A DNA stretch of 64,000 bases from positions 6,793-70,792 of the forward strand of contig JAFSEX010000005.1 of assembly GCA_017435465.1 (NCBI GenBank). The letters run 5' to 3'. The DNA comes from Bacilli bacterium (GTDB taxonomy: Bacteria; Bacillota_I; Bacilli_A; RF39; UBA660). Position 1 is the stretch's first letter, and each line of letters begins with the position of its first letter. The notes under the pieces are model-generated. The model was given only the letters and a program-made list of their open reading frames with translations, made no database searches and was not told the origin of the DNA. This document shows, piece after piece, positions 14,801-35,640 of this stretch. The translations under genes were made by a program, and so were the position numbers.

Positions 14801-15784
14801 ATGATTATAGATACTCATAGTCATATTGGTAATGATTTTTATTGTGGCAATATAAAAATACAAGATTATATACAATTTTGCAAAAAAAATAAAATAGACA
14901 TTGGATTTCTAATGCCTACACCTTGGCCACAATACAAAGATAATAATCAATATGTTACATCTTTGATATGGGAACATGACAACTATATTAAAAAGAATTA
15001 TTATTCATTAATAAACGGAAATAAAGTATCAATTGAAAGTAATCCATATAAAAATGTTAATTATAATTGTTTTGATGAAATTAATAAAAATCATTGTAGC
15101 GATATTCAATTATATTTTGTACCACTTATTCATGGAGTATTAGATAATGCAAATTATTTAGAAAAGATGTTAGGTGAATTAAACCCAAAAGCTGTAAAAA
15201 TGCATGGGTTTGGAAGTGGATTTTCTCCAACTGAAATCAAATCTGATATTGTTGAAATTTTGAAATATTATGATATACCAATTATACTTCATACATCAGT
15301 ATATAATTATGATTATGGATATGGGGCAGACACAAAATATTGGAGAAATGAATGTCATCCCTATAAATGGATAGAATTTTTACTTAAGAATAATTTAAAG
15401 GGTGTTCTAAATCATGGGGCATGTTTACATAATGAAACAATTGATTTAGTAAATAAATCCGAAAAAATAATGGTGGCGTTAGGTCCTGACTTAGATATTT
15501 CTAAAGATTTTTTTAAAGTTGATATACCTAAAGAAACATATTTGAAAATAGAATACCTAAAATACTTAAAACAAAAGTTGGTATCTACAAAAATATTATT
15601 TGATATCGATTATAATTGGAATGTTGATGAAAATAATAATATAGATAATAACTCTATTCAAAGAGTAAGTGAAACATGGAGCGAAAATGAGTTGGATAAC
15701 ATTTTGTATAACAATGCATTAGAGTTCTTTAAACTGTCACACAATGAAGTTAAGGCAAAAATCTTAAAAAACACAAAAAATTAG
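14801..15784 (+). CDS. metal-dependent amidohydrolase-fold (TIM barrel) protein
   Basis: N-terminal IIDTHSHIG metal-binding motif with internal H residues (KMHGF, ILHTS). SD AGGGGGGGA. Confidence 0.55.
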   Translation: MIIDTHSHIGNDFYCGNIKIQDYIQFCKKNKIDIGFLMPTPWPQYKDNNQYVTSLIWEHDNYIKKNYYSLINGNKVSIESNPYKNVNYNCFDEINKNHCSDIQLYFVPLIHGVLDNANYLEKMLGELNPKAVKMHGFGSGFSPTEIKSDIVEILKYYDIPIILHTSVYNYDYGYGADTKYWRNECHPYKWIEFLLKNNLKGVLNHGACLHNETIDLVNKSEKIMVALGPDLDISKDFFKVDIPKETYLKIEYLKYLKQKLVSTKILFDIDYNWNVDENNNIDNNSIQRVSETWSENELDNILYNNALEFFKLSHNEVKAKILKNTKN

Positions 15785-15803
15785 TACCTAAATAGTACCT
15801 AAA
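15776..15803 (+). repeat. 28-bp direct repeat copy 1 (AAAAATTAGTACCTAAATAGTACCTAAA), containing a tandem 11-mer TAGTACCTAAA x2
   Basis: Identical to 35718-35745. Overlaps the amidohydrolase stop codon. Confidence 0.9.
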
Positions 15804-15812
15804 ATAGTTTTC

Positions 15813-15897
15813 AAAAATAAAAACCCTTATTTTATAAGGGTTTGTTTTCATATGGAGCGGTTAAGTTACAACTTGCGAACTAATTAGTTCTCTTTCT
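15813..15897 (-). ncRNA. candidate small RNA, repeat copy C
   Basis: TTGAAA-17-TATAAT on the minus strand (15932-15904). The body is identical to copy B through AACCGCUCCAUAUGA. The terminator is a different hairpin, AAACCCTTATAAAATAAGGGTTT, plus U-run. Confidence 0.5.
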
Positions 15898-15996
15898 GGA
15901 TTTATTATATAATAATTGTTATAATTTTTCAAGGCGTATGGCAAATTTTAATCATTTATAGTATAATTAACTTTAAAGTGTTCAGGAGATTTAGGT

Positions 15997-17700
15997 ATGA
16001 ATATTATAAATAAATTAGAATTAGAAAATATAAAAATTGGAATTAGATATTATGGATTAGAAAATTTGTCTACTGGAATAGCAGTTAAAGACTTAATGGA
16101 AGGAAAAGAAATTATATTAAATAATTATAAAAATAATAGTATCTTATCTTTAGATGATTATATAAATTACGTTTTTTTGGATTATATTATGAAATTTCAA
16201 GAAGTTATACCATATGTTAAAGAAGATAAAAAAGAAGAATTTAAAAATTTTATAATTAATTGTAAATTAATATATGATAAATATAGATTTGCAGATATAG
16301 TAAAATACATTCAAAAGGATTACAAAGAAATTTATAATTATGATGACGATGATAATGTTGATTGTTTAGTATTTGATTTAAAAAACTATACCTCAGAATT
16401 TATTGGTGAACATTTCAATTGTTTCAATGAAGAGGTTATACAATATATAATTAACGAAGCAACATATGATGTTATAGACTATTTTGAAAAGTGGAAAAAA
16501 TTTTTTGTTAAAAATCCTGAAAAACTAAAAATTTTATTTAGTGAAGATAATATAAATAAAGTATTTCTTATGCGAATTCAAGAACTTATAGGTATAATTG
16601 AATCATTGCGTAACAACCGCAAATTTGATGAGGCAGTATTGAATGCAATGGATATTATTTATAACATATTAAAAAAACAATATTTTAATCCTGCGGGAGA
16701 ACAACATATTTGGCAAAGTTATTTTATGCTTAATGACTGTCTATCTTTTTATAGAAAAATGTATTCACCTTATGCCTATAAATTAGAGATTGAACTAGAA
16801 AAACAAGAAATTTTATTTAATGATAACTTGTTAAAAAATGGTAACAGTCAACCAATCGAGTTTGATTTAAAACCTTTCAAAGATTTTTTTGAAGATAATA
16901 CAAAACCTTGGGAAATAAGAATTGTATTTTCAACTCATTCTAGAGATGAAAATGGTAAATTAGTGAGTTTTCTAGAACAAGGTGCAAAATGCCCTATTAA
17001 AGGATTAAGTGATGAATTAGCCAGGAAAAATCCTGGAACAGATAATTATTTTACAGGTTGGAGATTAAGGAATTTATCTTTATATTCATTTGAAACAAAA
17101 TCAAAGTTTATGACTTTGATGAGTACTAATCATAATATTAGTGAATATTTATCCGACATTTATGGTGAATTACGATATATATGTGAAAATATTAATACAA
17201 CAATGGAATTTGAAGGACTAGATGAAAATATGGAAATGTTATTGCAATTTTTATCTGACTTATTTATAAATTTACCTAGCGATGTCGATGTACAACAATA
17301 TCAATTACCAATTAAAACTACTGTATATGGATGCGCTATGTTCTTATGTGGATTAATTGAAAAAGTTTTGCGTATTATATATAAAAACAGTATGAAGGAA
17401 ATATCATATATTCCAGACTCAAGTATAAATTTGGGTAATTTATTGATTGAGAATGATAAACATACATCTATAATTTTAGATATATTAGGAATTGAACAAG
17501 TTAAATGTCTTAAGTATTATCTTCAAAAAATAGATTTTTATAATGCGGTTGGACAAAATATACGTAACGATCTTGCTCACATAAATGGCAGAACAATGAA
17601 AAATTTAAATCATTACCTAATTTTAGAATTGCTGTCTTATTTTACATCAATCCTTAATAGTTGTGTTTTGTATTATCAAGGAAAAAACAAACATTCGTAG
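15997..17700 (+). CDS. hypothetical 567-aa protein with C-terminal HEPN-like Rx4H motif
   Basis: Intact ORF with SD CAGGAGA. It is cytoplasmic-looking, and GQNIRNDLAHINGR lies near the C terminus (DNA 17563-17580). Confidence 0.45.
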   Translation: MNIINKLELENIKIGIRYYGLENLSTGIAVKDLMEGKEIILNNYKNNSILSLDDYINYVFLDYIMKFQEVIPYVKEDKKEEFKNFIINCKLIYDKYRFADIVKYIQKDYKEIYNYDDDDNVDCLVFDLKNYTSEFIGEHFNCFNEEVIQYIINEATYDVIDYFEKWKKFFVKNPEKLKILFSEDNINKVFLMRIQELIGIIESLRNNRKFDEAVLNAMDIIYNILKKQYFNPAGEQHIWQSYFMLNDCLSFYRKMYSPYAYKLEIELEKQEILFNDNLLKNGNSQPIEFDLKPFKDFFEDNTKPWEIRIVFSTHSRDENGKLVSFLEQGAKCPIKGLSDELARKNPGTDNYFTGWRLRNLSLYSFETKSKFMTLMSTNHNISEYLSDIYGELRYICENINTTMEFEGLDENMEMLLQFLSDLFINLPSDVDVQQYQLPIKTTVYGCAMFLCGLIEKVLRIIYKNSMKEISYIPDSSINLGNLLIENDKHTSIILDILGIEQVKCLKYYLQKIDFYNAVGQNIRNDLAHINGRTMKNLNHYLILELLSYFTSILNSCVLYYQGKNKHS

Positions 17701-17739
17701 TTGTTTATTAGGTATATTTGTAATGATTTTGATTAAGGT

Positions 17740-17915
17740 TGTTTATTATATTCTAGATGATAATGAAAATGTAGTTAATAGGGAAATTTTAAATATATAA
17801 GATAATTGATGGTAATTAGCCTAAAAATGTTATTACAATAGATATATTTGACATACCCCAAGATGGAATAATTCATAAAAACAATATAGATTGAGTATTA
17901 GAAAAATATAATAAA
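17740..17915 (+). pseudogene. degenerate 3' remnant of a second AAA/DUF4143 ATPase gene plus its terminator
   Basis: 17800-17960 aligns by eye with 12195-12350 (GGAATAATTCATAAAAA..., AAGAAACAC...GTGTTTCTTTTTT). No intact frame remains. Confidence 0.6.
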
Positions 17916-18016
17916 AAAAAGAAACACGTTATTTCAACCTTATAAACTGTGTTTCTTTTTTTTATGTATTTAAAATTAATATAAAATATTTCTTTAATTA
18001 TAACTTAAAAATGGGA

Positions 18017-18391
18017 TTAATCTTTTTTTAAATCAAGTATTGCTTGTATGTAAGTTTCCACTTTTATTTTTTCTTCACCATCCAAGCATCTATAATTTGT
18101 TATTAAGTAAAGTTCTTTGTCGGAAAGAATAAAATCAGGTGGAGTTGGATTATCTGTCAAATCAAATAAATAATCAGTAGATGTATTTAATAATTTGGCC
18201 ATTTCTATTATAGTAGCAGTTTTAGGTTTGATTTTTCCACTAATATATTGACTCATCGCCTCCTGTGATACTTCTAATTCTACTGCTATTGAAGTTAATG
18301 ATTTATTTTTAGCTTTTACGATTTTCTTTAAATTTTTCATTGTTGTCTTTTTATTACTTTTCAAGGACTTCACCTCCATAAATTTAAACAT
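18017..18391 (-). CDS. XRE-family helix-turn-helix transcriptional regulator
   Basis: The HTH reads SLTSIAVELEVSQEAMSQYISGKIKPKTATIIEMAKLLNTSTDYL. The start is ambiguous among three in-frame ATGs. Confidence 0.7.
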   Translation of the reverse strand: MFKFMEVKSLKSNKKTTMKNLKKIVKAKNKSLTSIAVELEVSQEAMSQYISGKIKPKTATIIEMAKLLNTSTDYLFDLTDNPTPPDFILSDKELYLITNYRCLDGEEKIKVETYIQAILDLKKD

Positions 18392-18415
18392 TTATATAAA
18401 AATTATATAATTATT

Positions 18416-18457
18416 ACTTCAAATTAACTTGAAGTGTGCTATAATATATATTGAAGT
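18416..18457. promoter_or_regulatory. candidate operator/promoter between the XRE gene and the surface locus
   Basis: Perfect palindrome ACTTCAA-N6-TTGAAGT (18416-18435), a third TTGAAGT half-site at 18451, and TATAAT at 18440-18445. Confidence 0.4.
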
Positions 18458-18536
18458 AATAATTATAATTGAGAATGAAATATTAAAATGTCAATTATTG
18501 TATTTGTTACTAATTTTATATAGGAGGAAGTGTGAT

Positions 18537-21500
18537 ATGAAAAAGAAAAAAGGTTTGATTTTATTTTCAGTAATTGCTATAACTACAATATTATCTTTTG
18601 GGATATATAAAGTTTTAGCAGAACAACAATTTAATACTATTGCAACTATTGATAATGGAATAATTAATGATTTAAACGAAGAGTTTACATTAACTATTAA
18701 TGCAGATGATTTGCCAGGGGAAGGGTTAGCGTCAGGTCAATTTTATGTTGATTATAATCCAGATATATTCCAAGTAGAAACAACTAATGGAGAAATATCT
18801 GATAGTTCAATAGAATTTGGACAGGACAGAGATAATAATTTTTCTCACTCAATAAAACAATCAGACAATATAGGAAGAGTAACTGTTCTATATTATGATA
18901 ATAGTGCTAATTTAAATCAACCACTAGAAAATGGTGAGTTATTTAAATTGAAATTTAAATATATAGGCAACTTACTTGAACAAATTGATGATGAGCATGA
19001 AGAATTAATAACAATTTCTGGTGAAGGATTTTCAACAATACAAAGGGAAACAACACAAAATGGTGAAAATCTAGATATTGTCGATCTTGCTTCAAAATTT
19101 AATAATGTAAATGTTGTTATTAGAAATAGAGAATTAAAAATCAACAATGTAACTTCTAATGATGACAAAATTTATAATGGTAGAGTTAATAATTTATCAT
19201 TAAATTTAACATCAATTGATTTTGATGAAAATACTGAAATTTCATTTGATATTCAAAGAGAAAATTACTATGGAGATTTAAACTTTGATGGAATAATTGA
19301 TTCAGTAGATGTAAATTATCTTGAAAGTTATTTGGCAAAAAGTAGATTTTTATCAACAATTCAATATAAAGCAGCTGACGTAAATGGAGATAATAATTTA
19401 ACACAATCTGATGTGATTATTATTCAACAATATATAAGTAATACTTCCGCTTCACATTATAAAACAGGAGAATTGATGTCGGAGGCATCAAAAAATGAAA
19501 CAAACAAATTTACTGTTTCATCAAATAATGTGGGAAGTCCAATAGATGGAATATCAACAATAAATATAAATTTAGATACATTAAATACTATAGAAGTGGG
19601 AACATATAAAGTTGTTGCCAACATTGGTGATGTAGAATCTAATGTTTATACATTCCATGTTAAAGAACAACCTGTAACAAAAGTAGAACTTGATTCAAAC
19701 GAATATACTGTAGGAATTAATAATACTAAACAGGCAAATGCAACTATAACGCCAATTAATGCTCATGTTAAAAATATTAAATGGAGTGTTGAAGATGAAA
19801 ATATTGCTACAGTTGATGAATTTGGTGTAATAACAGGTGTAAGTGAAGGTACAACTTTACTATATGCAAAAAGTATGGATGGAACATTAATTCAAACAAG
19901 TGCAACGATAAATGTTGTTAATCAAATAATCAGTATAGATTCAAATGCTTTACAATATACACCTAGCAAATCTTATGGTGCATCATCTACAGGTAAAATA
20001 TACGATAAAGATGGTGGAACAATTAAAGGGAATGTTGCTATCGCAAATACTACAACAGATAATCTAAGTTATGTACTTGTAAGAAGTGATGATAATAATC
20101 AAACAAATATCATAGATAAAGTTAATGCTAATGTTACTTTAGCACAAGCAGGAAATATACATGAATTATCAATTACAATACCTGAAGAAACATTAGAAGC
20201 AGGAAGTTATGATTTCAAAATTATAAATGGAGAAAACATTGAGTCTAATATAATTAAAATAGTGATTAATGATTATATACCTGTAACAGGAGTGAATTTA
20301 AAACATAATGGTCAAAGTATTACAGGAATTAATATCTTAAAAGGAGACCAAGTTGAATTTGTTGCAGAAGTATTACCAGAAAATGCAACTAATAAAGATT
20401 TAATTTGGGGATTATCTGGAAATAATAAATTTATTCAAACTGAAACATCAGATACTTATCATCAAACAATTAAAGCAAATGATGTTGGTGATGGGACATT
20501 ATCTATAAAAAGTGCAGAAAATGAAAGTATTTCTAAATCTATTAAAATAAATGTAATTGATCCAACAGATACAGTTGGAACATCAGAAGTAACAAGTAAT
20601 ATTGTTGGAAATAATGTTATTGATGAAAGATTTGGTGGAGTATTTACAAATATAATCAATTTTACTGACGTAGAAGACAATACTACTTTAGAAGTAAGTT
20701 TATATAATGGTAATAATACATTAATTGAAACTGATAAATATGATGTTGAATCTGATTTAACAGTTATTAATAATAGTGCTGAAATATCTATAGAAATAGG
20801 GGATAATCAACTATCATCAGGAACTTATACAGTTAAATATAAATACATTTTAAATGATGTATATAAAACTGAAAAAACAGGTTCTTATGAAATTGTTATT
20901 CATGAATTTATACCTATTGAAACAATAGAAAGCACAGTTGAAAAAATAACTCTAATTAAAGGTCAAACATATACTTTTAGTGATTATACTGTTGCTCCAT
21001 CTAATGCAACATATAAAGTATTAAAATTTGAAGTTGATAATGAAAATATAAGTTTATCAACATGGTCAAAAGCAGAATTAACTGCAAATGCTACAGGTAC
21101 ATCAATATTAACTATCAAAACTCTTGATGGTAGTGAAAAAACAAAAGAAATATTAGTAGAAGTAATTGAACATGATATACATTCTGTTCATTTTGAAGTT
21201 GATTTAAATAATAAAAAAGTAAAAAGAATAAACGATAAATTAACTTATAATAATTTATTAGATAAGATTAATAAACATAATGAAATAACAACAAAAGCAT
21301 TTAGAAATGATGTAGAAATTAATTATGAAAAAGATTTAATTGGAACAGGTACATTGCTAAAAACATATTTAAATAATAAATTATTTAATACATACACAAT
21401 GATTGTAGATGGAGATATAGATGGTAATGGTAAAGTTGTTGCAAACGACATATTATTTGTTAAATCACACATATTGAAAAAGCAAACTTTAGAGGGAATA

Positions 21501-21608
21501 TATTTTGAAGCGGGAGATATTGATAAAAATGGTTCAGCAAATGCTACTGATATTTTATATATGAAAAGATATATTTTAAGTAAGTCTGATAATGTGTGGG
21601 GTGATTAA
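18537..21608 (+). CDS. large secreted protein: N-terminal cohesin-like module, internal dockerin, several Big_2-like repeats, C-terminal dockerin
   Basis: Start at ATG 18537 behind SD TAGGAGGAAG, with a signal peptide. Cohesin-like GLASGQFYVDYNPDIF, Ca-binding repeats DLNFDGIIDSVD / DVNGDNNLTQSD, and a C-terminal pair DIDGNGKVVANDIL / DIDKNGSANATDIL. Big_2-like repeats include ATITPINA...KWSVEDENIATVD. Confidence 0.7.
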   Translation: MKKKKGLILFSVIAITTILSFGIYKVLAEQQFNTIATIDNGIINDLNEEFTLTINADDLPGEGLASGQFYVDYNPDIFQVETTNGEISDSSIEFGQDRDNNFSHSIKQSDNIGRVTVLYYDNSANLNQPLENGELFKLKFKYIGNLLEQIDDEHEELITISGEGFSTIQRETTQNGENLDIVDLASKFNNVNVVIRNRELKINNVTSNDDKIYNGRVNNLSLNLTSIDFDENTEISFDIQRENYYGDLNFDGIIDSVDVNYLESYLAKSRFLSTIQYKAADVNGDNNLTQSDVIIIQQYISNTSASHYKTGELMSEASKNETNKFTVSSNNVGSPIDGISTININLDTLNTIEVGTYKVVANIGDVESNVYTFHVKEQPVTKVELDSNEYTVGINNTKQANATITPINAHVKNIKWSVEDENIATVDEFGVITGVSEGTTLLYAKSMDGTLIQTSATINVVNQIISIDSNALQYTPSKSYGASSTGKIYDKDGGTIKGNVAIANTTTDNLSYVLVRSDDNNQTNIIDKVNANVTLAQAGNIHELSITIPEETLEAGSYDFKIINGENIESNIIKIVINDYIPVTGVNLKHNGQSITGINILKGDQVEFVAEVLPENATNKDLIWGLSGNNKFIQTETSDTYHQTIKANDVGDGTLSIKSAENESISKSIKINVIDPTDTVGTSEVTSNIVGNNVIDERFGGVFTNIINFTDVEDNTTLEVSLYNGNNTLIETDKYDVESDLTVINNSAEISIEIGDNQLSSGTYTVKYKYILNDVYKTEKTGSYEIVIHEFIPIETIESTVEKITLIKGQTYTFSDYTVAPSNATYKVLKFEVDNENISLSTWSKAELTANATGTSILTIKTLDGSEKTKEILVEVIEHDIHSVHFEVDLNNKKVKRINDKLTYNNLLDKINKHNEITTKAFRNDVEINYEKDLIGTGTLLKTYLNNKLFNTYTMIVDGDIDGNGKVVANDILFVKSHILKKQTLEGIYFEAGDIDKNGSANATDILYMKRYILSKSDNVWGD

Positions 21609-21609
21609 G

Positions 21610-22515
21610 TTGTTTAAGAAAATATTATGGATCGTTCCTTTGGTTATTTTACTTTCAACAACTAATGTATATGCTGCATCATTTGATATGGATTTGGTAA
21701 TAGACCAAACAACAGTAACTAAAGGTGAAGATTTAAATGTAAAATTATCTAATAAAAATTTAGATAATAATGGATTAGCATCAGGTCAATTTTATATTGA
21801 GTACGATACAAACTATTATAATTTCAGTTGTGATGATGTAACATATAAACGAAATGTTACATCTTCTGAAATTGATTGTAATGTGTCTAATAACCAAATA
21901 ATTATTATGTATGTTGATGAAGATGCAGGAGATAGTCCAATAACTAACGGAGAATTTTTAAATTTAAAATTCAACGTTAAAACAGGTGTTACAACTACAA
22001 CACCAACTACTTTTAAATTAAGTGGTGAAGGATTTTCAAGTGTTAATGGGAGTAAGATTGTTAATTTAACGTCTAATTCAAATATCACTAAAACTGTTTC
22101 AATAGAAAAACAAAAAAATTCAGATATTTATTTAGGAACATTAAGTATTGATGGATATAATATAGGATTTGATAAAAATAAATTTGAATATTCAATTGAA
22201 GTAGAAAACAATGTATCTAAAATAAATATAAAGGCAACTACTAATACTTCAACATCTACTGTAGTTGGTAGTGGAGAAAAAGAATTAGTAGTTGGGGATA
22301 ATAAATTTACATTAACAGTAACCGCAGAAAATGGTTCAACACAAAACTATGTTATTAATGTAAAAAGGTTAGATGTTGCAAAAGATACAGGAACAATTAA
22401 AGAAAATCCTCAAACAGGAGTAAATCATAGTGTAACAGCTATTGTGTTCATACTTATAGCAGGTGTTGCTACATTATATATTACAAGAAAGAGAAATTTC
22501 TTTCCAAAGATTTAA
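21610..22515 (+). CDS. cell-wall-anchored cohesin-like scaffold with cadherin-like beta-sandwich module and NPQTG sorting signal
   Basis: Signal peptide, GLASGQFYIEYDTNYY, and a LSIDGYNIGFDKNKFEYSIEV module. NPQTG (22405-22419) is followed by a hydrophobic helix and an RKRNFFPKI tail. The start is TTG 21610 or ATG 21592. Confidence 0.65.
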   Translation: MFKKILWIVPLVILLSTTNVYAASFDMDLVIDQTTVTKGEDLNVKLSNKNLDNNGLASGQFYIEYDTNYYNFSCDDVTYKRNVTSSEIDCNVSNNQIIIMYVDEDAGDSPITNGEFLNLKFNVKTGVTTTTPTTFKLSGEGFSSVNGSKIVNLTSNSNITKTVSIEKQKNSDIYLGTLSIDGYNIGFDKNKFEYSIEVENNVSKINIKATTNTSTSTVVGSGEKELVVGDNKFTLTVTAENGSTQNYVINVKRLDVAKDTGTIKENPQTGVNHSVTAIVFILIAGVATLYITRKRNFFPKI

Positions 22516-22524
22516 GGAGAATTT

Positions 22525-23592
22525 ATGAAGAAAGTATTTTTAATGATTCTTCCAATATTAATGTTATTTATGCCAACAGTTGTAAATGCTAGTACTAATT
22601 TTAATACTAGCATTTCTGTTAGTAGTAGTGATATTAAATTGGATAAAGAGTTTAGTATATCAATTAATTTATCAAATTTAAGTAGTTCAGGTTTAGCATC
22701 TGGACAATATTATATCTCATACGATAAAAGTAAAATGTCGTATTTAGGATATTCAGTAGGACAAAATAAACCTGCAGCAGATTATAGTGTAAGTGATAAC
22801 AATGGTAATATTGTTGTATTATATGTAGATAATACAGCAGGAGAAAACATATTAAAAAATGGTGTGTTTGCTACTTTAAGATTTAAAGCAATAAAAGAGG
22901 GAACAGGTAGTATTAATTTGTCTGGTGAGGGTTTTGCAACTATTACTGATTCAATTATTGATTTATCAACAAATACTGCTAATAAATCAATTACAATAAC
23001 AAAAGAAGTTGTTGTTCCGCCGGCACAAGAGGAAAATAAAAATAATAACAATAGCAATAATACAAACAACAATAGTAATTCAAATAATACTTCAAATAAA
23101 ACTGAAACTAAAAAAGAAGAAGTAAAAAAAGAAGAATCAAAATTAAGTAATGATGCATTATTAAAAAAATTGGAAATAAAGGAATTAGAATTAAAGTTTA
23201 GTAGTGATAAAACTGATTATAAAATATCAGTACCTTATGAAACTACTAAATTAAATATAAGTTATGAGACTTCACATGATAAAGCAACTGTAGAATTAGA
23301 TAATAAACCATTACAAGTAGGTAACAATGAAATAACAATTAAAGTAATTGCTGAAGATAAAACAGAAAAAATATATAAAATAACAGTTACAAGAAATGAA
23401 GAACTACCTGTTATAGATTTAGATGATGATAACGAAAAGAATGATATAGAAATAGAAAAACAAGATAATGCTGAACCTAAAGAGAATAATACAACAAAAA
23501 TTATTGTTTGTTCAATAGTAATAATATTATCATTAGTACTTGGAGGATATGCATTATATATTACTATTAAAAAGGATGTGAAAGAAGTATGA
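22525..23592 (+). CDS. membrane-anchored cohesin-like scaffold with N/K/E-rich linker and cadherin-like module
   Basis: Signal peptide, GLASGQYYISYDKSKM, an Asn-rich low-complexity linker, LEIKELELKFSSDKTDYKISV, and a C-terminal TM helix. Confidence 0.6.
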   Translation: MKKVFLMILPILMLFMPTVVNASTNFNTSISVSSSDIKLDKEFSISINLSNLSSSGLASGQYYISYDKSKMSYLGYSVGQNKPAADYSVSDNNGNIVVLYVDNTAGENILKNGVFATLRFKAIKEGTGSINLSGEGFATITDSIIDLSTNTANKSITITKEVVVPPAQEENKNNNNSNNTNNNSNSNNTSNKTETKKEEVKKEESKLSNDALLKKLEIKELELKFSSDKTDYKISVPYETTKLNISYETSHDKATVELDNKPLQVGNNEITIKVIAEDKTEKIYKITVTRNEELPVIDLDDDNEKNDIEIEKQDNAEPKENNTTKIIVCSIVIILSLVLGGYALYITIKKDVKEV

Positions 23593-26500
23593 AAAAATGG
23601 AAAAACAAAAAATTAATTATCATCTTATCATTCTTTTTCGTCTTTGCACTAGTAAGTGCGTTTATAAATAATGCATTTTTTAAACCTACTAAATTAAATG
23701 CATTTATTACCGCAAAAATTTACAAAAGTCCTTCAAATATTTCATTTAAAGATGATGCGTTATATAAATGCGTTATTGATGCTTATAACATTCAAAATAA
23801 TACAGAAGAACCATATACAACAAGTTTGTCTGAAACTCAATTGTCAACAATAGAAAATTTAGCTTGTTCTGGAACAATATATGAAGTTGATGGAATTGAA
23901 ACTTTAACTAATTTAAAGAAATTAGATATTATTCTTGATACCTATAGATATTACAATATAGATATTTCAAATAAAGAGTTACAAGAAATTAATATTATTG
24001 CGTCAGATAATCTATTATTAAATCTTGAACAAGCGACAAAACTTACAAAATTACATGTTGATGTAGGAGAAATATTAGGTACTTTAGATTTAAGTAATAA
24101 CATTGATCTGACTGATTTAAAAATAGACACTTCCAAATATGGGACTTATACAGGTGATAAATTGATACTAAATAATAATATTAATTTAAAAAGTCTAGAT
24201 TTAAATATTACTTCATATTCTTTTGGTGAAGTCCTTGATATATCATCCAATACCAACCTAGAAAAATTAAAGATACATGATGGATATATGAGTGAAATTA
24301 TTTTTAGTAATTATCAAGACCTAAAAGAAATAGACTTTAGTTTAGGTGATTTAGCTACCGAAGTAAATTTAAATAAAATGCCTAATTTGGAAAAATTAAA
24401 AATCCATAACAATGGGTCTGAAATACTTGGGTTTTCTGAGTTAACTAAATTAAAAGAAATAAATTTAAATTATAATACATATATAGATACATTGGATTTG
24501 AGTAATAGTTCATATTTGGAATCAGCAAATTTAATTGGAAATGGATTTATTTCTGTTACACTAGATAGTGATAGCTTAGAAACAGTCAATGTATCTAACA
24601 ACAATAATAATAATTTATCTATATCAAGTAATAAATTGAATGATGTTACAATAAGTGGAAGTAAATTAAAAACATTAGTGTTTAACAATAATACTATTGA
24701 TACACTTAATTTAAGTTCAACTCCATTATTAAATTCGATTACTATTGATAGTTCTGCACTTAAAAATATAAATATTCAAGATAGTTCTGAACCATTATCA
24801 AGTTTAACTGTTTCTATTTCCGGAACAGAAGAAATGAGTCTTAATGGTAAAGTAAATGAATTAAATTTAGAAAGTCCAACCCTTAAAAATTTGAACGTAA
24901 GTAATTTAGGTTTAATTAATTTAAATATTGATAATTCTACTGGTCTTGAAATATTAAATGTAAATAATAATAATTTAGATTCATTGGATTTAAATAATAA
25001 TAGTCAAATTAAAAATATAAATTTAAGCAATAATTCTATTAGTGAATTAGATATTTCATCAAATACAGAACTTTCAGAATTAATTGCAAACAGTAATAAA
25101 ATAAGTAGTATAGACTTATCAAATAATACAAAATTAGCTGTTTTAGAATTAAATGATAATCTGTTAAATGACATTGATTTTGCTAATAACAATAGATTGA
25201 TATCTTTAAAAATAAATGAAAATAATTTAAAAACACTAGATTTCAAAAATTGTACTTATTTTGAATCATTATCGGCAACTAACAATTCAAATTTAGAATA
25301 TGTTAATTTGGAAAATAATAAATATGTTGAAACAATTGATTTGTTTAGCAGTCTTAATTGTGATGGTGAACAGGATGAATATAATTCTTGTCTAAGTAAT
25401 AATGCTTTTAGAGGCAAGGTGAAATTACATCCAGAAACAAATACTATTTCATTTAGTGCATCTTCATATAAGAGAACAGGAGTTTTTAGTTCTGTACATC
25501 CCTTAATCTATAGTTGTCCAAGTCGTACATATGATTTTGCATATAACTTTTTTGAGAATTATAATCCACTTGAAAACACACATACTCTTGATTTATCTGC
25601 TGGAAATGTATTTAGAAAATATGATGGAAATATTAGATATTGTGAAACTGCTTTCTATATTGACGGTGGTCTTTACAGGGAAACAAATGCTGTTTATTTT
25701 ATAGAATTAGCGTCAAATTCTTCATATTTTATTGATACTGATGAAAATTTTATAGATATATATGATGAAAAAATTTCAAACAATATATTGGATAATTTAT
25801 CATTAAATTATGGTGAAATGAGAATTAATAATGATAAATTACAAGTGTTATTCGACAATGAAGTAATAAAAGAATTTGACATTAGGACAACCTATGTTTC
25901 ACCAATCAATATAAATAATAAAGTTTTATCGAATACAATTAACAATGATAATAGCTGGTATAAAGGTTATAATGGAAATTTTTCATTTGATATAATCGCT
26001 AATGATGAAAATCTTGATTTAAATACTTTAAACGTTAGTGTTATTAAAAATAATAGTGATGTTAGTCATATATTTAATATTGATAAAGAAATTGTTGATG
26101 ATAAATTAACTATTAATATTTATAATATATCTGCGTCATGTGATATTGGGGATTATTATGTTAATATTAGTGATAGTAATGAGGTAATGGATACTATACT
26201 GTTTACAATATCAGAACCTACAAAAGTTAGTAATATTACTACAGAAAATATTAGAACAGTTAATGTTGATGAAATTATTGATATTAATTATAAAATTTTA
26301 CCAGAAAATGCAACCAATAAACAATTAGAATTAATAATTGCCGATGAAAGTATTGCAATAATTGAAAATGGTAAGATAAAAGGTTTAAAAGAAGGTGAAA
26401 CAACCTTAACATTAAAAGCAACTGATGGTAGTAATATTGTAAAAACAATCACTATAAAAGTTATTGATTTTGATATTAAAACTGATAAATATAATATAGA

Positions 26501-26900
26501 TGATAATTTAGTAATTAAAAAAATAAAAGACAAATTATTATTTGATAATTTCATTAATGATTTTACAGTTAATAGTGATATAAATATTAAGGTATTTAAT
26601 AATGATGTTGAAATTGATTATACAAAATCATTAGGAACAGGACACAAATTAAAAACATATTCTAATGATGAATTATTAAATGAATATACATTAATTGTGT
26701 CTGGTGATATAAATGGTGATGGACAATCTAATGCAGCTGATATTATATTTATGAAAAGTCATATATTAGGTAAAAGTACTTTAGATGGTATTTTATTTAA
26801 AGCAGGAGATATTGATGAAAACAATTCTGTAAATGCTACTGATATTATATATTTGAAAAGTTATATTTTGGGTAAAACTAATAATGTATGGAGTAGTTAA
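23589..26900 (+). CDS. large secreted leucine-rich-repeat protein with Big_2-like domain and C-terminal dockerin
   Basis: There are about 20 LxxLxLxxN-type repeats (residues ~100-560), and Big_2-like ILPENATNKQLELIIADESIAIIENGKIKGLKEGETTL. The dockerin pair is DINGDGQSNAADII / DIDENNSVNATDII. The last ~130 aa are homologous to the C terminus of 18537-21608. Confidence 0.7.
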   Translation: MKKWKNKKLIIILSFFFVFALVSAFINNAFFKPTKLNAFITAKIYKSPSNISFKDDALYKCVIDAYNIQNNTEEPYTTSLSETQLSTIENLACSGTIYEVDGIETLTNLKKLDIILDTYRYYNIDISNKELQEINIIASDNLLLNLEQATKLTKLHVDVGEILGTLDLSNNIDLTDLKIDTSKYGTYTGDKLILNNNINLKSLDLNITSYSFGEVLDISSNTNLEKLKIHDGYMSEIIFSNYQDLKEIDFSLGDLATEVNLNKMPNLEKLKIHNNGSEILGFSELTKLKEINLNYNTYIDTLDLSNSSYLESANLIGNGFISVTLDSDSLETVNVSNNNNNNLSISSNKLNDVTISGSKLKTLVFNNNTIDTLNLSSTPLLNSITIDSSALKNINIQDSSEPLSSLTVSISGTEEMSLNGKVNELNLESPTLKNLNVSNLGLINLNIDNSTGLEILNVNNNNLDSLDLNNNSQIKNINLSNNSISELDISSNTELSELIANSNKISSIDLSNNTKLAVLELNDNLLNDIDFANNNRLISLKINENNLKTLDFKNCTYFESLSATNNSNLEYVNLENNKYVETIDLFSSLNCDGEQDEYNSCLSNNAFRGKVKLHPETNTISFSASSYKRTGVFSSVHPLIYSCPSRTYDFAYNFFENYNPLENTHTLDLSAGNVFRKYDGNIRYCETAFYIDGGLYRETNAVYFIELASNSSYFIDTDENFIDIYDEKISNNILDNLSLNYGEMRINNDKLQVLFDNEVIKEFDIRTTYVSPININNKVLSNTINNDNSWYKGYNGNFSFDIIANDENLDLNTLNVSVIKNNSDVSHIFNIDKEIVDDKLTINIYNISASCDIGDYYVNISDSNEVMDTILFTISEPTKVSNITTENIRTVNVDEIIDINYKILPENATNKQLELIIADESIAIIENGKIKGLKEGETTLTLKATDGSNIVKTITIKVIDFDIKTDKYNIDDNLVIKKIKDKLLFDNFINDFTVNSDINIKVFNNDVEIDYTKSLGTGHKLKTYSNDELLNEYTLIVSGDINGDGQSNAADIIFMKSHILGKSTLDGILFKAGDIDENNSVNATDIIYLKSYILGKTNNVWSS

Positions 26901-27023
26901 AATTATTTTATAAATAATTCACATAATTTTATAATTTTATTAAGGGTATGGGATTCCCCCATAATTTGAAAATGTTAGGAGTCCATTTTCAGTGCTTGCC
27001 AAGACAAAAATATTGATAATTCT

Positions 27024-27052
27024 AAAAACGAGGAAAATTTTTTCCTCGTTTT
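27024..27052. terminator. bidirectional intrinsic terminator
   Basis: AAAAACGAGGAAAATTTTTTCCTCGTTTT: a 9-bp stem flanked by A- and T-runs. Confidence 0.65.
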
Positions 27053-27389
27053 AATCATAAATTAATTCATTTAAAACTATTTCTTCTGCAATATTTTTAT
27101 AATTATTCATTAGTTGTACCCACTCAAGTTGGTTGATTTCTTTATTTTTTTCAGACAGTTTTTCATCACTTTTGATGTAATTATCCATCAGAATTTTTAC
27201 TTTTTCTTCTGCCATTTCACCAACTGAAAATAAATAATTGTTTAATTCACCACACATTAATAGGTATTCATATAATGCTTTTTTATTATGTTTTATATGA
27301 ACTAATTTTAATAAACCATATTTATTTAATTGTTTTTCATCATTGTTAACTACTATATATTTTACTTTCATTTTATTAATTCCTTTCAT
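27051..27389 (-). CDS. hypothetical protein (element X)
   Basis: Intact ORF immediately downstream of the recombinase on the same strand. Confidence 0.4.
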   Translation of the reverse strand: MKGINKMKVKYIVVNNDEKQLNKYGLLKLVHIKHNKKALYEYLLMCGELNNYLFSVGEMAEEKVKILMDNYIKSDEKLSEKNKEINQLEWVQLMNNYKNIAEEIVLNELIYD

Positions 27390-29180
27390 TTATTCATAAA
27401 TTATTTTAGTTTTTGGTATAAGCATAAGGTTATCAATGATGTTTCCTTTGCTTATTAGAGGACAATTTATAATGCCGTCATAATAGAAATGTTCACTTAC
27501 TAGAGAACAAAATGCTTCTTGTTCTAGAGTAGAATATTCATTATTTTGATATTTATTTAATGAATATATGTAGTAATTTTTCTCATATTTAGGTATGTCA
27601 TCCACACTTATTTGTTCATAATACTTAATTCCCATATTATCATTTTGTAAAATATCATTAAGATATTCTAAATATTCTTTATTACTTTTTGATATAAATT
27701 CATCATAAAACTTAATATTTTTGATTTCAATATTATAATTTTTTTCTCTAGTTATTTCTAAACTTGATATAAGTTTTTGTATTAAATCTTTCTTTGTTTG
27801 TCTTTTTAGACTATCCCACACAAAAGAAAATCCTAATTTATTGAACATAATATTTTCATTATTTTGATAATCACAGTCTATTTTTTTAACTAATTCTACT
27901 ACATATTCTTTAAAATCATCATCTGGATTTAATAATTCTTTTTTCTTATTTAACTTTTGAATTTCTTTTTTTATGGTTTCATTTTTAGTATTAATGGTAT
28001 CAACAGGTAATGTTGATGAGATATATAAATCAACTAATCGTTTTTCTTGTAGTTTTAATTTTTCTATTGCTTTATCAATATCTTTAATATCTTTTGATTT
28101 AGTAGAGTTACATACTATAATTTCATTATCCATATCATACATATATCTAGTTAATTCATTTAATATACGACCTAATCTTTTTTCAATTTTATCAGAACTA
28201 TAATGTAAACCTTTTGATTTACAGTTAGGATTTTTACAAGTTAAATGATAATATTCAATTCTATTTTTATTTCTATCATATTTATAAGATATAGTAGAAG
28301 ATAGTATTTTAGAACATTCTGGGCACTTTACAATAGAAGTAAATAAATGTATATGTTCTCCATAGTTTGGATGTTTATTCTTCTCTAAATTAGTTCTAGT
28401 AACATTCCAAGTATTCATATCTATAATTGGTTCACAATAGTTTTCAACTCTTAAAATATCTTCATCTTTTCTTCTATATTTACCATATTCAAATATCCCA
28501 ATATAAATAGAATTAGTTAATATTTTATAAACTCTATCTGCTCTCCATTTTCCTTCTTTTAGATATGCATTTGTTTCGTTTAGAATACTCGCAATACCTC
28601 TTGTAGAATGCCTATCTTTACACAAATTAAATATTTCTTTAACTACTTGTGCCTCAATAGGTTCTATCTCTAAATGACCTGTTTCTTTATTTCTAACATA
28701 TCCATAGGGTGATTTAGCAGGGTGTATTTTAGATAATGCCATTTCTTCCATAGCACGTTTAGTTCTTGCACCTATTTCTTTTCTTTCTCTTTGTCCAAAT
28801 ACTAAATTCATTCCAAATATCATTTCACCATTAGCAGTTCCTACATCATAAGGTTCTAATATCAGTTCAATTTTTACATCGTGTTTTTCACAATAATTAA
28901 GTAACCAAAATCCATCGTAATTATTTCTAGTTAGTCTATCTACTTTTATTGCGACTAACTTATCAATCTTTTTTGCCTTAATATCTTTTAATAATCTTTG
29001 CATTTCTGGTCTCATTAAATCTTTTCCAGAATAACCTGCATCATTATAAACATCAATAATAGAATATTCATTCTTTTCACAATATTCTTTAATCATACGA
29101 AGTTGTGAATCAATAGAGTATCCATTATCTCTTTGATCGTCTGTACTTACTCTTACATATATTGCGCATCTTTTACTCAC
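27390..29180 (-). CDS. large serine recombinase
   Basis: N-terminal resolvase catalytic domain CAIYVRVSTDDQ...GYSIDSQ, a recombinase domain, and a zinc-ribbon CPEC...C..C region. GTG start lies 9 nt after SD AAGGAG. Confidence 0.85.
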   Translation of the reverse strand: MSKRCAIYVRVSTDDQRDNGYSIDSQLRMIKEYCEKNEYSIIDVYNDAGYSGKDLMRPEMQRLLKDIKAKKIDKLVAIKVDRLTRNNYDGFWLLNYCEKHDVKIELILEPYDVGTANGEMIFGMNLVFGQRERKEIGARTKRAMEEMALSKIHPAKSPYGYVRNKETGHLEIEPIEAQVVKEIFNLCKDRHSTRGIASILNETNAYLKEGKWRADRVYKILTNSIYIGIFEYGKYRRKDEDILRVENYCEPIIDMNTWNVTRTNLEKNKHPNYGEHIHLFTSIVKCPECSKILSSTISYKYDRNKNRIEYYHLTCKNPNCKSKGLHYSSDKIEKRLGRILNELTRYMYDMDNEIIVCNSTKSKDIKDIDKAIEKLKLQEKRLVDLYISSTLPVDTINTKNETIKKEIQKLNKKKELLNPDDDFKEYVVELVKKIDCDYQNNENIMFNKLGFSFVWDSLKRQTKKDLIQKLISSLEITREKNYNIEIKNIKFYDEFISKSNKEYLEYLNDILQNDNMGIKYYEQISVDDIPKYEKNYYIYSLNKYQNNEYSTLEQEAFCSLVSEHFYYDGIINCPLISKGNIIDNLMLIPKTKIIYE

Positions 29181-29375
29181 TCAAATCATCTCCTTTTGTA
29201 TATTCGTAACACTGAATTTGTACTCCCAATAAAAAAGTCACTGGTTTTATTAACCAATGACTTGTAATTTTTTTAAATTATAATATTTTTCAAATTTCAG
29301 TACTTTCATACGTGATTACCTCCGATGTATATATCTCCTAACTTGGTTTCATTATAATTTATTTTATTATTTAAG

Positions 29376-29660
29376 TCAATTGGCTAATTTTTGTAGAATT
29401 GATTTGAGTTCTTTAAGATTATATTTCTTGTTGTATTCTTTGATATAAAATGGTTTATTACTAATCTCATTTACTTTATATTCAAGTATTGTAAGAGTAG
29501 TAGGTTCTGTAATTAAATATTCTGTTGGTTCAATAAATTGTAGATTTGTCTTTTCTAAATGTTTTACTTTGCCATTTTTAGTTTTGTAAGTGTAGTTTTT
29601 AATTAGTTCTAGAACCTCAGTATTTGGTTTAAGTATTTCTAATGTTTTAAATTCAAGCAT
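29376..29660 (-). CDS. small conserved protein upstream of the serine recombinase (paralog of 35187-35462)
   Basis: Start ATG 29660 behind SD AAGGAGG. It shares the LEKTNLQFIEP / LDKTNLTYIEP block with the element Y protein. Confidence 0.5.
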   Translation of the reverse strand: MLEFKTLEILKPNTEVLELIKNYTYKTKNGKVKHLEKTNLQFIEPTEYLITEPTTLTILEYKVNEISNKPFYIKEYNKKYNLKELKSILQKLAN

Positions 29661-29699
29661 TAAAAAATGTCCTCCTTTCCAGAAAGAGAACATTTAAGT

Positions 29700-29790
29700 A
29701 TTAAAAAAACTTACAAACCATATTGGTTCGTAAGTTGATTTCAAATGGAGCAGTTGTCGAAGATATCTACAACTTTCAACTTCTTAACGA
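29700..29790 (-). repeat. TGGAGC-core module D (divergent relative of the small-RNA-like repeats A-C)
   Basis: The minus strand reads hairpin ...CAACTGCTCCATTTGAAATC, then terminator AACTTACGAACCAATATGGTTTGTAAGTT plus T-run. Confidence 0.35.
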
Positions 29791-29931
29791 TTTGATATAC
29801 AAAATATCAATCTCTAATAATATTTTAACATATTTTTTATCAAATATGTCTAATTTTATATAATTTTTCTTAAAAATGTAAAAAACAAGCAAAATCATGT
29901 TATAATTATATTAAATAAAGGAGGTTTAATT

Positions 29932-30198
29932 ATGCATCAAACTGAATATATAGATGTTTTAATTGGTACAAGTAATGGGTGCTATATTGTTGAAAAAAAG
30001 GAATTTGAAAAAGGAAGTAAAGAAGCATTAGAAGCAACGGAAATGCTAAAAGCATTAGCTCTTAAAGGTATGAAAGAAGGACATCCTATTTATAGAAAAC
30101 ACGGAGATAAATTAGTTGAAGCCAATTTAGAAGTAGATTATGCTTATTTACTTGAATTAGAATTGTTACCAAAAGAAGGACGTTCAATAGGAAGATAA
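29932..30198 (+). CDS. hypothetical protein (element Y cargo)
   Basis: Intact ORF with SD AAGGAGG, translationally coupled to the next ORF. Confidence 0.4.
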   Translation: MHQTEYIDVLIGTSNGCYIVEKKEFEKGSKEALEATEMLKALALKGMKEGHPIYRKHGDKLVEANLEVDYAYLLELELLPKEGRSIGR

Positions 30199-30200
30199 TT

Positions 30201-31580
30201 ATGGAAAAAATTAATTATTTTAAACTTAAAAATATTAAATATGACATAGAGTTTTGTCGTAATTTTCCTATAAAAGTTTCATTATCTGATAATGCAATAA
30301 GATTCTTGAAAGTATTGTTAAGTTATAACAATTTAAGTCTAGAAAAAATATTATCAATGTTAGAAAACAATAAAACACTTGAACTATTAAATATAAAAAA
30401 GATAGATCCAAATGAATTAGAAGTAGTATTTGATATATTTTATGAAGTATCAGATTTTTTTCGAAATCTTGATAGAACAGGTAAATTAACTTTTGATGAA
30501 ATGAAATATGCTTATCAAAAATTAAAAGAAAGTAATAAATTTAGTGAAAGTGAATTGCATTTTTTTCAAATGTTTATAGATATAAGAAAAGAAAGAATTG
30601 ACAGCATATATAATTTAAATAGTTCGGAATTAGAATCTCTAATTATAGGAATGGGATTAGATGAAATAAAAGAATTAAAAGTATTACTTGGATTTAGTAA
30701 GAAGCCTGTATATATACATTTGTCTGATTATTCAAATTCTAAAAAAGTTTCAGAAAATTATATATATGATTTAACACCTGAAGAAAAGCAATTGGATTTT
30801 TTAATAGATCAATATTTAGAAAAAAAAGAACAAAAAGAAGAATCTGAATATGGATTTTCTTTCTATAATAAAATTAGTGATGAATTTTTTAAATATTATG
30901 ATTATAGCATATATATTATTGAAACAATGCAAGCTGAGTTTGATAAAAAATATGATGAAATGTTTGAACAATATAAAGATAAAAATTCACAGACTGAAAG
31001 TAAAAATCAAACTTATGACACTTCAAAACGAGATTTAGCTAATTTACAAAATTTGGTAGGGAAGATTTCTGATTCTTCACAAGAATTGATTAGTAATAGT
31101 ACAACAATTAATGATATAATGAGTTTAGACGAATTATTGAATTATAGAAATAGTTTGGATGAAAACTTCTTTTGGCTAAAAAAGGCAATAACTGAAGTTA
31201 TAAGAAAAATGAATCAACGAATTATAAGTTTTAACGAATGTGTTGCTAATGGTAATGTTAACGAAAAATTAAAAGATATGAGTTTATGGCAAAAAAGACA
31301 ATTATTATTTTTACGTAAACTTCCAAATTTAGAACATTATAATCCAAGTAATGAATTAGCCAATTTTACCTATGATGCCACAAATATGTTGTGGAATTCC
31401 ATTAAAGAAGATGAATTAAAAGAAGCTCAAGATAATGGTTTTGATACTTTTGACGAGTATATGCTATCTATATATGAAAATGATATAAAAGATAAAGATA
31501 TCATTGATTTTAGGCAAATATATATTATTAATTATTATAAAAATAAAATAAATCAGGATAAAGGTATCCCTAAAAAATAA
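30201..31580 (+). CDS. hypothetical 459-aa protein (element Y cargo)
   Basis: Intact ORF. It is acidic and helical-looking, and no motif was recognised. Confidence 0.4.
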   Translation: MEKINYFKLKNIKYDIEFCRNFPIKVSLSDNAIRFLKVLLSYNNLSLEKILSMLENNKTLELLNIKKIDPNELEVVFDIFYEVSDFFRNLDRTGKLTFDEMKYAYQKLKESNKFSESELHFFQMFIDIRKERIDSIYNLNSSELESLIIGMGLDEIKELKVLLGFSKKPVYIHLSDYSNSKKVSENYIYDLTPEEKQLDFLIDQYLEKKEQKEESEYGFSFYNKISDEFFKYYDYSIYIIETMQAEFDKKYDEMFEQYKDKNSQTESKNQTYDTSKRDLANLQNLVGKISDSSQELISNSTTINDIMSLDELLNYRNSLDENFFWLKKAITEVIRKMNQRIISFNECVANGNVNEKLKDMSLWQKRQLLFLRKLPNLEHYNPSNELANFTYDATNMLWNSIKEDELKEAQDNGFDTFDEYMLSIYENDIKDKDIIDFRQIYIINYYKNKINQDKGIPKK

Positions 31581-31601
31581 TATAAAAGATGATTGAAAGC
31601 A

Positions 31602-32932: not shown

Positions 32933-33017
32933 ATCTCTTCCTAGATGGAAAGAATAAGCTAATTCTATAATCAATCACGCTCCTTTTTTTAGTAGTTAAA
33001 ACTTGGTTTTTTAGAGT

Positions 33018-33039
33018 ATATTTTGTTATGACAAAATAT
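33018..33039. promoter_or_regulatory. inverted repeat upstream of mob, candidate oriT hairpin
   Basis: ATATTTTG-N6-CAAAATAT lies ~90 bp upstream of the relaxase start. A second hairpin, CTAAGGCTCGCCTTAG, lies at ~33083-33098. Confidence 0.3.
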
Positions 33040-33116
33040 TTAACCCCCTAGGCATTTTGACATACTATCAAAATACCAGTGGGCTAAGGCTCGCCTTAGA
33101 ATCCGATATAGAAGAA

Positions 33117-35114
<1,998 letters not shown>

Positions 35115-35186
35115 TCATATTTACTTCTGTCCGTCTATATTAATTATATCATTTTTTTCGACAAAAGTCCATCTTTGCAAATGGCG

Positions 35187-35462: not shown

Positions 35463-35539
35463 AAACACCATCCTTCCTTTAGGATGATTTCTTTGTATGG
35501 CTTCCAAGCTAGACACGTGGAAGTTCATAAACACAAAAA

Positions 35540-35640
35540 AATCAATCTTTCGATTGATTTTCTATATATCAATGTCCGAATAGTTCGAACAGATTCGTCA
35601 ATGGAGCAGATGATGGGAAACTGAACCCGGTATTTTTTGG
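35540..35640 (-). repeat. TGGAGC-core module E
   Basis: The minus strand reads ...CATCATCTGCTCCATTGACGAATCTGTTCGAACTATTCG. This aligns with copy A (GCTCCATTGAAATGAATCGAACTAGTAATAGTTCG). Confidence 0.35.

Follow-up and report, generated by a model that had tools for sequence, protein, structure and literature searches.

A probable non-cellulosomal cohesin-dockerin surface display cassette in an uncultured small-genome gut Bacilli bacterium

Nearly all work on docking between cohesins and dockerins concerns Clostridia that degrade fibre or starch. Few examples come from non-cellulolytic species (PMC4611034). In Ruminococcus bromii, Sca2 carries one cohesin and a C-terminal sortase signal and binds the dockerins of a leucine-rich repeat (LRR) protein, a peptidase and amylases, and Sca1 (Sca1/Amy4) combines a cohesin with a dockerin and is able to multimerise (PMC4611034). 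In Ruminococcus flavefaciens, the non-enzymatic, substrate-binding protein CttA binds through its X-dockerin to the wall-anchored single-cohesin protein ScaE (PMC4266597), and the dockerin proteins of strain FD-1 include 28 LRR modules and 16 peptidases (PMC2930009). For Ruminococcus bicirculans, a lone dockerin and a lone cohesin have been linked with a glycoside hydrolase (GH) of family GH73 (Wegmann et al. 2014, as cited in PMC4611034). Here we analysed a window of 64,000 nucleotides from an uncultured Bacilli bacterium (assembly GCA_017435465.1, contig JAFSEX010000005.1, positions 6,793 to 70,792), in which a regulator gene and four surface-protein genes, open reading frames (ORFs) 1 to 4, make up a conserved cassette (Table 1). 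We consider it probable that this is a non-cellulosomal cohesin-dockerin cassette for cell-surface display. ORF2, with a single cohesin and a sortase signal, is like Sca2, and ORF1, with both a cohesin and dockerins, is like Sca1.

A preliminary description had claimed that the four co-oriented genes encode two small scaffolds, each with one cohesin and one cadherin-like module, and two very large dockerin-bearing proteins, and had named domain searches beforehand as the check on the two folds. Pfam, sequence matches in the Protein Data Bank (PDB) and an AlphaFold model bore this out and gave three cohesins and three dockerins, with Pfam scores above the gathering cut-offs, type I modules among the PDB matches, and agreement from Foldseek. 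The Cohesin family scored 52.6 bits in ORF3 and 40 bits in ORF2 (cut-off 24.1), and the Cadherin-like family scored 47 and 39 bits, respectively. The PDB sequence matches of ORF3 were type I cohesins (5nrk_A, E=2e-6; 1g1k, 2vn5, 3kcp and 3ul4). The AF2 model of ORF3, for which 21 sequences were used, consisted of a cohesin head (residues 30-160; predicted local distance difference test, pLDDT, ~90), a disordered linker (166-204), a beta-sandwich (210-292; pLDDT ~91), a second disordered stretch, and finally a transmembrane (TM) helix (322-354). The top Foldseek matches of this model were nearly all cohesins, type I before type II. They included 2vn6_A and 5nrk_A, the latter with a TM-score of 0.80, a root-mean-square deviation of 2.1 A and a probability of 1.00. 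The model superposes on solved cohesins in the manner of a nine-stranded jelly roll, and the cohesins of ORF1 and ORF2 align with that of ORF3 over their full length. By this alignment, the whole ORF1 domain covers about residues 35-200. All three share the motifs GLASGQ(F/Y)Y (GLASGQFY in ORF1), VLY.D..AG, NG.F..L.FK and SGEGF. The three dockerin modules, two in ORF1 and one in ORF4, scored 35.9-81.7 bits with Pfam PF00404 (cut-off 22.9; 39.4 bits for ORF4). Those of ORF1 matched type I dockerins in the PDB sequence search, and the F-hands, as read from the sequences, retain D/N at Ca-binding positions 1, 3, 5 and 12.

The two small proteins end in different anchors, as had been described. 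In ORF3 a C-terminal membrane helix is predicted, and in ORF2 the motif NPQTG is followed by 22 largely hydrophobic residues and the basic tail RKRNFFPKI. N-P-x-T-x motifs are a known type of class B sortase substrate, and the genome holds three class B sortase domains and one class C/D-like domain. NCBIfam called class B sortases on contigs C17 (244 aa, 196.7 bits) and C49 (168.7 bits; cut-off 153.75), and a 541-aa sortase ORF on C63, which lay outside that scan, closely resembles the one on C49 and has the same N-terminal extension. Since the genome encodes SEDS proteins together with these four sortase domains, a cell wall is expected. With one cohesin, a sorting signal and a sortase available in the genome, ORF2 has the make-up of a sortase-anchored single-cohesin scaffoldin, its motif being NPQTG and not LPXTG. 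In the 1.46-Mb genome, NPQ(T/S)G followed by a TM span and a basic tail is seen in two ORFs only. Besides ORF2 this is a 463-aa secreted protein, without a Pfam domain, whose signal reads NPQSG and whose gene adjoins the sortase gene on C49 (C49:48612-51710). The product of that sortase gene, 541 aa long, has its class B domain in the C-terminal half, preceded by an unassigned 250-aa cytoplasmic extension.

The large proteins were likewise built as the preliminary description had stated. ORF1 (1024 aa) contains three Big_2 domains as well as its own cohesin and a second, internal dockerin, the cohesin, Big_2 and both Dockerin_1 matches lying above the gathering cut-offs. ORF4 (1103 aa) contains about 20 LRR units of 21-22 aa (residues 109-590), for which the InlJ-like and LRR Pfam matches were weak, and a Big_2 match of 17.9-21 bits, under the cut-off of 22.8. 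The claimed homology of their last ~130 aa was also found: the C-termini (last ~130-150 aa) are 51% identical over 150 aa, and 73% identical over 251 nt at the nucleotide level. We further found that all cargo proteins of these operons, including proteases in relatives, end in one and the same tag, a putative X module plus dockerin (...IV.GD.NGDG...NVWG). A conserved beta-rich segment of ~70 aa (AF2 pLDDT 67-81) lies upstream of every dockerin of this class. Tags are 64-83% identical within the class, even when a distant locus of 46% protein identity is included, versus 20-34% to other dockerins.

Table 1. Features of the cassette and of two further cohesin-dockerin pairs in the same genome (window positions unless a contig is given)
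Feature	Position	Strand	Details
Conserved five-gene cassette (XRE and four surface-protein genes)	18005..26925		blastn 92% nucleotide identity to L097 and L101
Divergent XRE-family helix-turn-helix regulator, 124 aa	18017..18391	-	Pfam HTH_3 34.8 bits
20-bp palindrome ACTTCAAATT/AACTTGAAGT, candidate operator/promoter	18416-18435; with promoter-like overlap 18416..18445	+	
ORF1, 1024 aa (from ATG)	18534-21608	+	signal peptide, cohesin, internal dockerin, three Big_2 with Ig-like spacers in alternation, putative X module, C-terminal dockerin
ORF1 cohesin core	18675..18962	+	residues 48-143; Pfam 37-39 bits (cut-off 24.1)
ORF1 internal dockerin	19269..19436	+	residues 246-301; Pfam Dockerin_1
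ORF1 end of putative X module and C-terminal dockerin	21358..21608	+	dockerin residues 960-1015 = 21411-21578
ORF2, 307 aa	21592-22515	+	signal peptide, cohesin 21691-22056, Cadherin-like 22144-22368, NPQTG 22405-22419, TM helix, RKRNFFPKI
ORF3, 355 aa	22525-23592	+	signal peptide, cohesin 22615-22998, disordered N/K/E-rich linker, Cadherin-like 23164-23394, TM helix ~23488-23586
ORF4, 1103 aa	23589-26900	+	N-terminal signal/anchor, LRRs ~23841-25358, middle region 25341-26243, Big_2 26235-26432, putative X module, dockerin 26703-26870
ORF4 copy of shared X-dockerin tag	26650..26900	+	end NVWSS
Second cohesin-dockerin pair	C42:21217-24613	-	684-aa SH3b + GH73-like + Cadherin-like + dockerin protein, then 449-aa cohesin + Cadherin-like + TM protein
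Third cohesin-dockerin pair	C7:36380-39744	-	811-aa secreted protein with X-like segment and degenerate dockerin, then 326-aa cohesin-like + Cadherin-like + TM protein

The same genome, in which dockerin modules amount to only a handful, holds two more loci with a dockerin cargo gene followed by a cohesin anchor gene, on contigs C42 and C7 (Table 1). The PDB matches of the GH73-like protein on C42 are the glucosaminidase domains of Staphylococcus aureus Atl and of AtlE. The C7 dockerin has a canonical first F-hand and a degraded second one, and gave no Pfam match at E<=0.001. The cohesins of these loci differ from the three in-operon cohesins. Thus at C42, at C7 and in the cassette, each dockerin class stands beside its own cohesin class, as would be expected of cognate pairs, and by sequence comparison the tag class matches the class of the adjacent cohesins.

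The assembly (1.46 Mb in 65 contigs, 86% complete, ~25% GC) belongs to a lineage in which such pairs are widespread. A housekeeping protein of the window has relatives at 67-83% identity in metagenome-assembled genomes labelled uncultured Bacilli, Tenericutes or Mollicutes, and also in 'Acholeplasma sp. CAG:878', from human, rabbit, sheep and goat gut. Such matches point to gut Bacilli with small genomes, known as RF39/RFN20 (PMC7301438). In a survey of 121 sampled genomes of the family, Dockerin_1 was above cut-off in 98 (97 of 120 genera), and Cohesin was detected in 68, in 58 of them above cut-off. In 81 genomes the GH73-like domain known from the C42 protein was found in one ORF with a dockerin, and by a hand count among the matches listed, 44 genomes had a dockerin followed by a cohesin within ~500 bp on the same strand. 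These counts therefore indicate that the lineage uses cohesin-dockerin docking as a near-core means to hold a wall hydrolase. Seen beside them, the window cassette is best taken as an accessory elaboration of this family system.

From these observations we infer binding, stoichiometry, surface exposure, ligands and regulation as follows. Judged by their N-terminal signal sequences, all four proteins would be exported by Sec. ORF2 would then be cut at NPQTG and joined to peptidoglycan by one of the class B sortases, and the C-terminal helix of ORF3 would keep this protein in the membrane. ORF2 and ORF3 would each hold a single type-I-like cohesin off the cell on a stalk made of a disordered linker and a cadherin-like beta-sandwich. 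ORF1 and ORF4 would dock on these cohesins in a Ca2+-dependent manner through their shared C-terminal tag of a putative X module and a dockerin, and the LRR and Big_2 arrays displayed in this way most likely mediate adhesion to the host, food particles or other microbes. The cohesin of ORF1 is of the same class as those of the anchors, with the same motif set, so ORF1 could accept another tagged protein, either ORF4 or a second ORF1, and would then serve as an adaptor or chain extender. Its domain content fits the earlier suggestion that it could be adaptor and cargo at once.

Several observations weigh against this scheme. No partner could be assigned to the internal dockerin of ORF1, which is only 24-32% identical to other dockerins and forms a sequence class apart from all others in the genome. 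In the first F-hand of the C-terminal ORF1 dockerin, position 9 is Val and not a polar residue. For the X-dockerin tag, AF2 modelling with 7 sequences gave a poor model (pLDDT 59), for which Foldseek returned no significant match. ORF4 is without a clear signal-peptidase site and may stay tethered to the membrane through its N-terminus. No family was found for its middle region of ~300 aa (residues 585-885), which appears lineage-specific, with a single close homologue among 5.8 billion proteins and six relatives among 1.84 billion representatives. Finally, that ORF1 and ORF4 are adhesins is the most likely reading of their domain types only.

A more far-reaching version of the scheme is conceivable but, in our view, doubtful. 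ORF1 would polymerise head-to-tail, its cohesin taking up the X-dockerin of the next ORF1, and would build an extensible non-covalent fibre on ORF2 and ORF3 as part of a family-wide surface-organising system. The fibre would bear interchangeable caps, namely the LRR adhesin here and papain-type proteases in sister strains. Such an exchangeable cassette would let auxotrophic small-genome gut Bacilli attach to and feed on a host surface or a partner microbe, in a family that would also tether a GH73 wall hydrolase by cohesin and dockerin.

The relatives of the cassette bear on the nature of its cargo. Relatives of ORF3 were drawn from a protein index, and a tblastn search of ORF3 against genome contigs gave no match. 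Two other metagenome contigs are 92% identical by blastn, with homology starting at 18005 in one (L097) and running up to 26925 in the other (L101), and their flanks differ. ORF1-like proteins are rare, with five clusters among 5.8 billion proteins. A 94%-identical ORF1 occurs on 16 contigs, and at four of the five places shown (L103-L106; the fifth is L107, on the same contig as L097) further cargo genes follow in the operon tail. In L103-L105 these encode Peptidase_C1 with Lectin_like and dockerin, LRR with dockerin, and Peptidase_C1 with Big_2 and dockerin; L106 ends inside the first extra cargo gene, and in L107 the contig ends in an LRR gene. Placed between ComEC and EzrA, a distant locus of 46% protein identity (L098; gut samples, Hadza ones among them) keeps a three-gene core, namely a cohesin protein with multiple dockerins, Big_2 and X-dockerin, a cohesin-cadherin-like protein with a sorting signal (motif NKNTG, with the same ...NFFPKM tail), and a cohesin-cadherin-like TM protein. 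It is without the XRE gene, the LRR gene and a recombinase. We conclude from this comparison that the core consists of an adaptor and two anchors and that the cargo tail is variable.

Two arrangements in these relatives stand apart from the core. In L098 (L098:5886-7100) the internal dockerin of the ORF1 orthologue is expanded to about five dockerin-like F-hand pairs over ~350 aa, in which Pfam reports two dockerin stretches and an EF-hand-like match. In L103 (L103:1997-8237), and also in L097 and L104-L107, a gene ahead of the cassette encodes a Flg_new-repeat protein of 1577 aa, whose dockerin is symmetric and of a further class (...SLADLSKFYNYYQG twice). This gene is followed by one for a cohesin-like and cadherin-like TM anchor of its own, of 498 aa in L103, where a CHAP-domain protein is encoded further upstream.

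The locus had been called enzyme-free. It is not a cellulosome: Pfam scans of the four proteins detected no GH or carbohydrate-binding module (CBM) family, nor any carbohydrate esterase or polysaccharide lyase family, and each cohesin protein has one cohesin. The term holds for this copy and is particular to it; for the system as a whole it does not stand, as near-identical cassettes elsewhere add Peptidase_C1-dockerin genes and this genome itself would dock a GH73-like hydrolase by way of the separate C42 pair. It could thus be argued that the system is a nutrient-foraging assembly in which the LRR and Big_2 proteins target substrates for dockerin-tagged proteases, and that the window copy has lost its protease genes. 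Consistent with this, two Peptidase_C1-dockerin genes on the shared tag are found in cassettes whose ORF1 is 94% identical, located between the anchor and LRR genes and also after them, and RF39/RFN20-type gut lineages lack several amino-acid pathways and take up oligopeptides (PMC7301438). However, neither the window copy nor L101 has a protease on this tag, and L098 has Big_2 cargo only, so the conserved core is non-enzymatic. We therefore regard a primarily proteolytic role as unlikely.

It is also conceivable that the modules do not pair at all, the dockerin-like ones being Ca-binding stabilisers or binders of other ligands and the cohesin-like ones Ig-like stalks of independent surface proteins. 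The evidence for pairing comes from sequence and fold, the internal dockerin of ORF1 is without an assignable partner, and non-cellulosomal dockerins without known partners are common. Against this stand the three loci in one small genome, where a distinct dockerin class lies directly upstream of a distinct cohesin class, and the same adjacency among the family matches listed (44/121). In addition, orthologous loci with just 46% identity in their anchors still show 64-69% conservation of the tag. Taken together, these findings make independent, non-pairing proteins improbable, and display through cognate cohesin-dockerin pairs remains the reading we prefer.

The four surface-protein genes are closely packed. 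Each start of the four co-oriented genes overlaps or nearly abuts the preceding stop, and terminator-like candidates within the span fall only inside ORF2 and ORF3, with none between genes, which indicates that ORF1-ORF4 form one operon. A bidirectional hairpin lies downstream of ORF4 at ~27025-27053. The order of the XRE gene and the four genes is seen again in relatives; the XRE gene is kept beside the operon in L097 and L103-L107 and absent at L098. An RstR-like NCBIfam match to this gene scores under the cut-off. The palindrome upstream of ORF1 overlaps a promoter-like sequence, TTCAAA-16-TGcTATAAT, with an extended -10 element. The product of the divergent XRE gene is probably a repressor of the operon that acts at this site. 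A divergent XRE regulator with a palindromic operator had been proposed before, and as to the presence of both elements and the fit of their pairing this was upheld. The conservation of the palindrome, which is identical in relatives, proves nothing and is uninformative, because the entire intergenic region is 95% conserved there.

The surroundings of the cassette are mobile in character. TnpV and a 596-aa large serine recombinase are encoded downstream of the operon (27051-29180, minus strand), and a second serine recombinase of 663 aa follows (33117-35108, minus strand). A perfect 28-bp direct repeat, AAAAATTAGTACCTAAATAGTACCTAAA, with copies at 15776-15803 and 35718-35745, brackets ~20 kb (15804-35717). 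Its first copy overlaps the stop of a 327-aa gene in a radical-SAM operon, which is likewise accessory. At the second copy, the overlap is with the stop of a tyrosine-integrase-like gene (35730-36851, minus strand). A third copy (80781-80807 of the contig that bears the window, C28), ~10 kb past the window end and with one mismatch over 27 nt aligned, lies to the right of this integrase gene and a phage-like block, both called from the sequence and ORF layout and not from a family scan. The arrangement suggests that a 20-kb mosaic island and a ~38-kb prophage-like element occupy one attachment site in tandem. The left flank was also used to look for an empty site in 30 relatives, and no homologous flank turned up. 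A small GC-rich hairpin, ATGGGATTCCCCCAT, at 26940-26965 lies just beyond the end of homology at 26925 and before the bidirectional terminator shared with TnpV; it may mark the edge of the recombinase element.

That the locus is cargo of the adjacent Tn4451-like element (TnpV plus a TnpX-like recombinase), moving with it and providing strain-level surface variation, is very improbable: although these genes lie immediately downstream, the direct repeat brackets the block and the cassette was not found in two same-genus genomes searched, the L101 cassette stops at the same point, with small ORFs and a superoxide dismutase gene downstream of it and no TnpV or recombinase, the upstream flank in L097 and L103 is another cohesin-dockerin pair, and the L098 locus is chromosomal. 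We accordingly rejected transposon cargo of the Tn4451 family, as relatives carry the cassette without TnpV/TnpX and homology ends at 26925. TnpV and the serine recombinases are unlinked to the cassette in relatives, and we place the cassette in a mosaic island at a putative reused attachment site, where it is not itself delimited by recombinases.

In uncultured, reduced-genome gut Bacilli, the use of cohesin and dockerin modules is a family-wide habit, made up of a near-core GH73 pair and accessory cassettes with swappable cargo, and no rare oddity. If the binding proposed here is true, it would offer a handle on surface organisation and attachment in widespread gut bacteria that cannot be cultured, and would yield several small, presumably orthogonal cohesin-dockerin pairs for protein engineering. 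The dockerin tag would, in that case, mark the secreted interaction toolkit of the lineage. The docking principle is already known, and this lineage and layout appear undescribed: among the top-ranked matches of a full-text search, no paper joined cohesins or dockerins to RF39, Tenericutes or Mollicutes gut lineages. What differs here is the setting in reduced genomes of the class Bacilli, a cassette without carbohydrate-active enzymes (CAZymes), and anchors with a cohesin, a linker and a cadherin-like stalk ending in either a TM helix or NPQTG. Also different are an adaptor that combines a single cohesin with dockerins of two classes, and the exchangeable XRE-linked packaging.

Compared with the described systems, the likeness to R. 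bromii is limited by lineage and by content, since R. bromii is a species of Clostridia whose system is built around GH13 amylases, whereas the cassette has no CAZyme. The cassette further differs in its second, membrane-helix anchor, its cadherin-like stalk, the NPQTG motif matching class B sortases, and the two dockerins of ORF1. It resembles ScaE and CttA of R. flavefaciens in that a non-enzymatic protein is proposed to sit on a wall-anchored single cohesin through a dockerin, preceded in the cassette by a putative X module. In contrast, the R. flavefaciens proteins belong to a true cellulosome, one rich in GH and CBM proteins; moreover, the modelled cassette cohesin (ORF3) resembles type I and not the ruminococcal type III, and the putative X module is without a structural match. 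The R. bicirculans case is like the C42 pair and not like the cassette, as a GH73 enzyme dockerin stands beside a cohesin protein, and pairs of the C42 type differ from it in being near-universal in the whole family. Finally, the structural matches of the ORF3 model include modules of Clostridium perfringens glycosidases (2jh2, 2vo8, 2w1n) and of Archaeoglobus fulgidus (2xdh). These modules, like the cassette, use cohesins and dockerins outside cellulose degradation; unlike the cassette, they link secreted enzymes together and are not anchored display stalks for repeat proteins.

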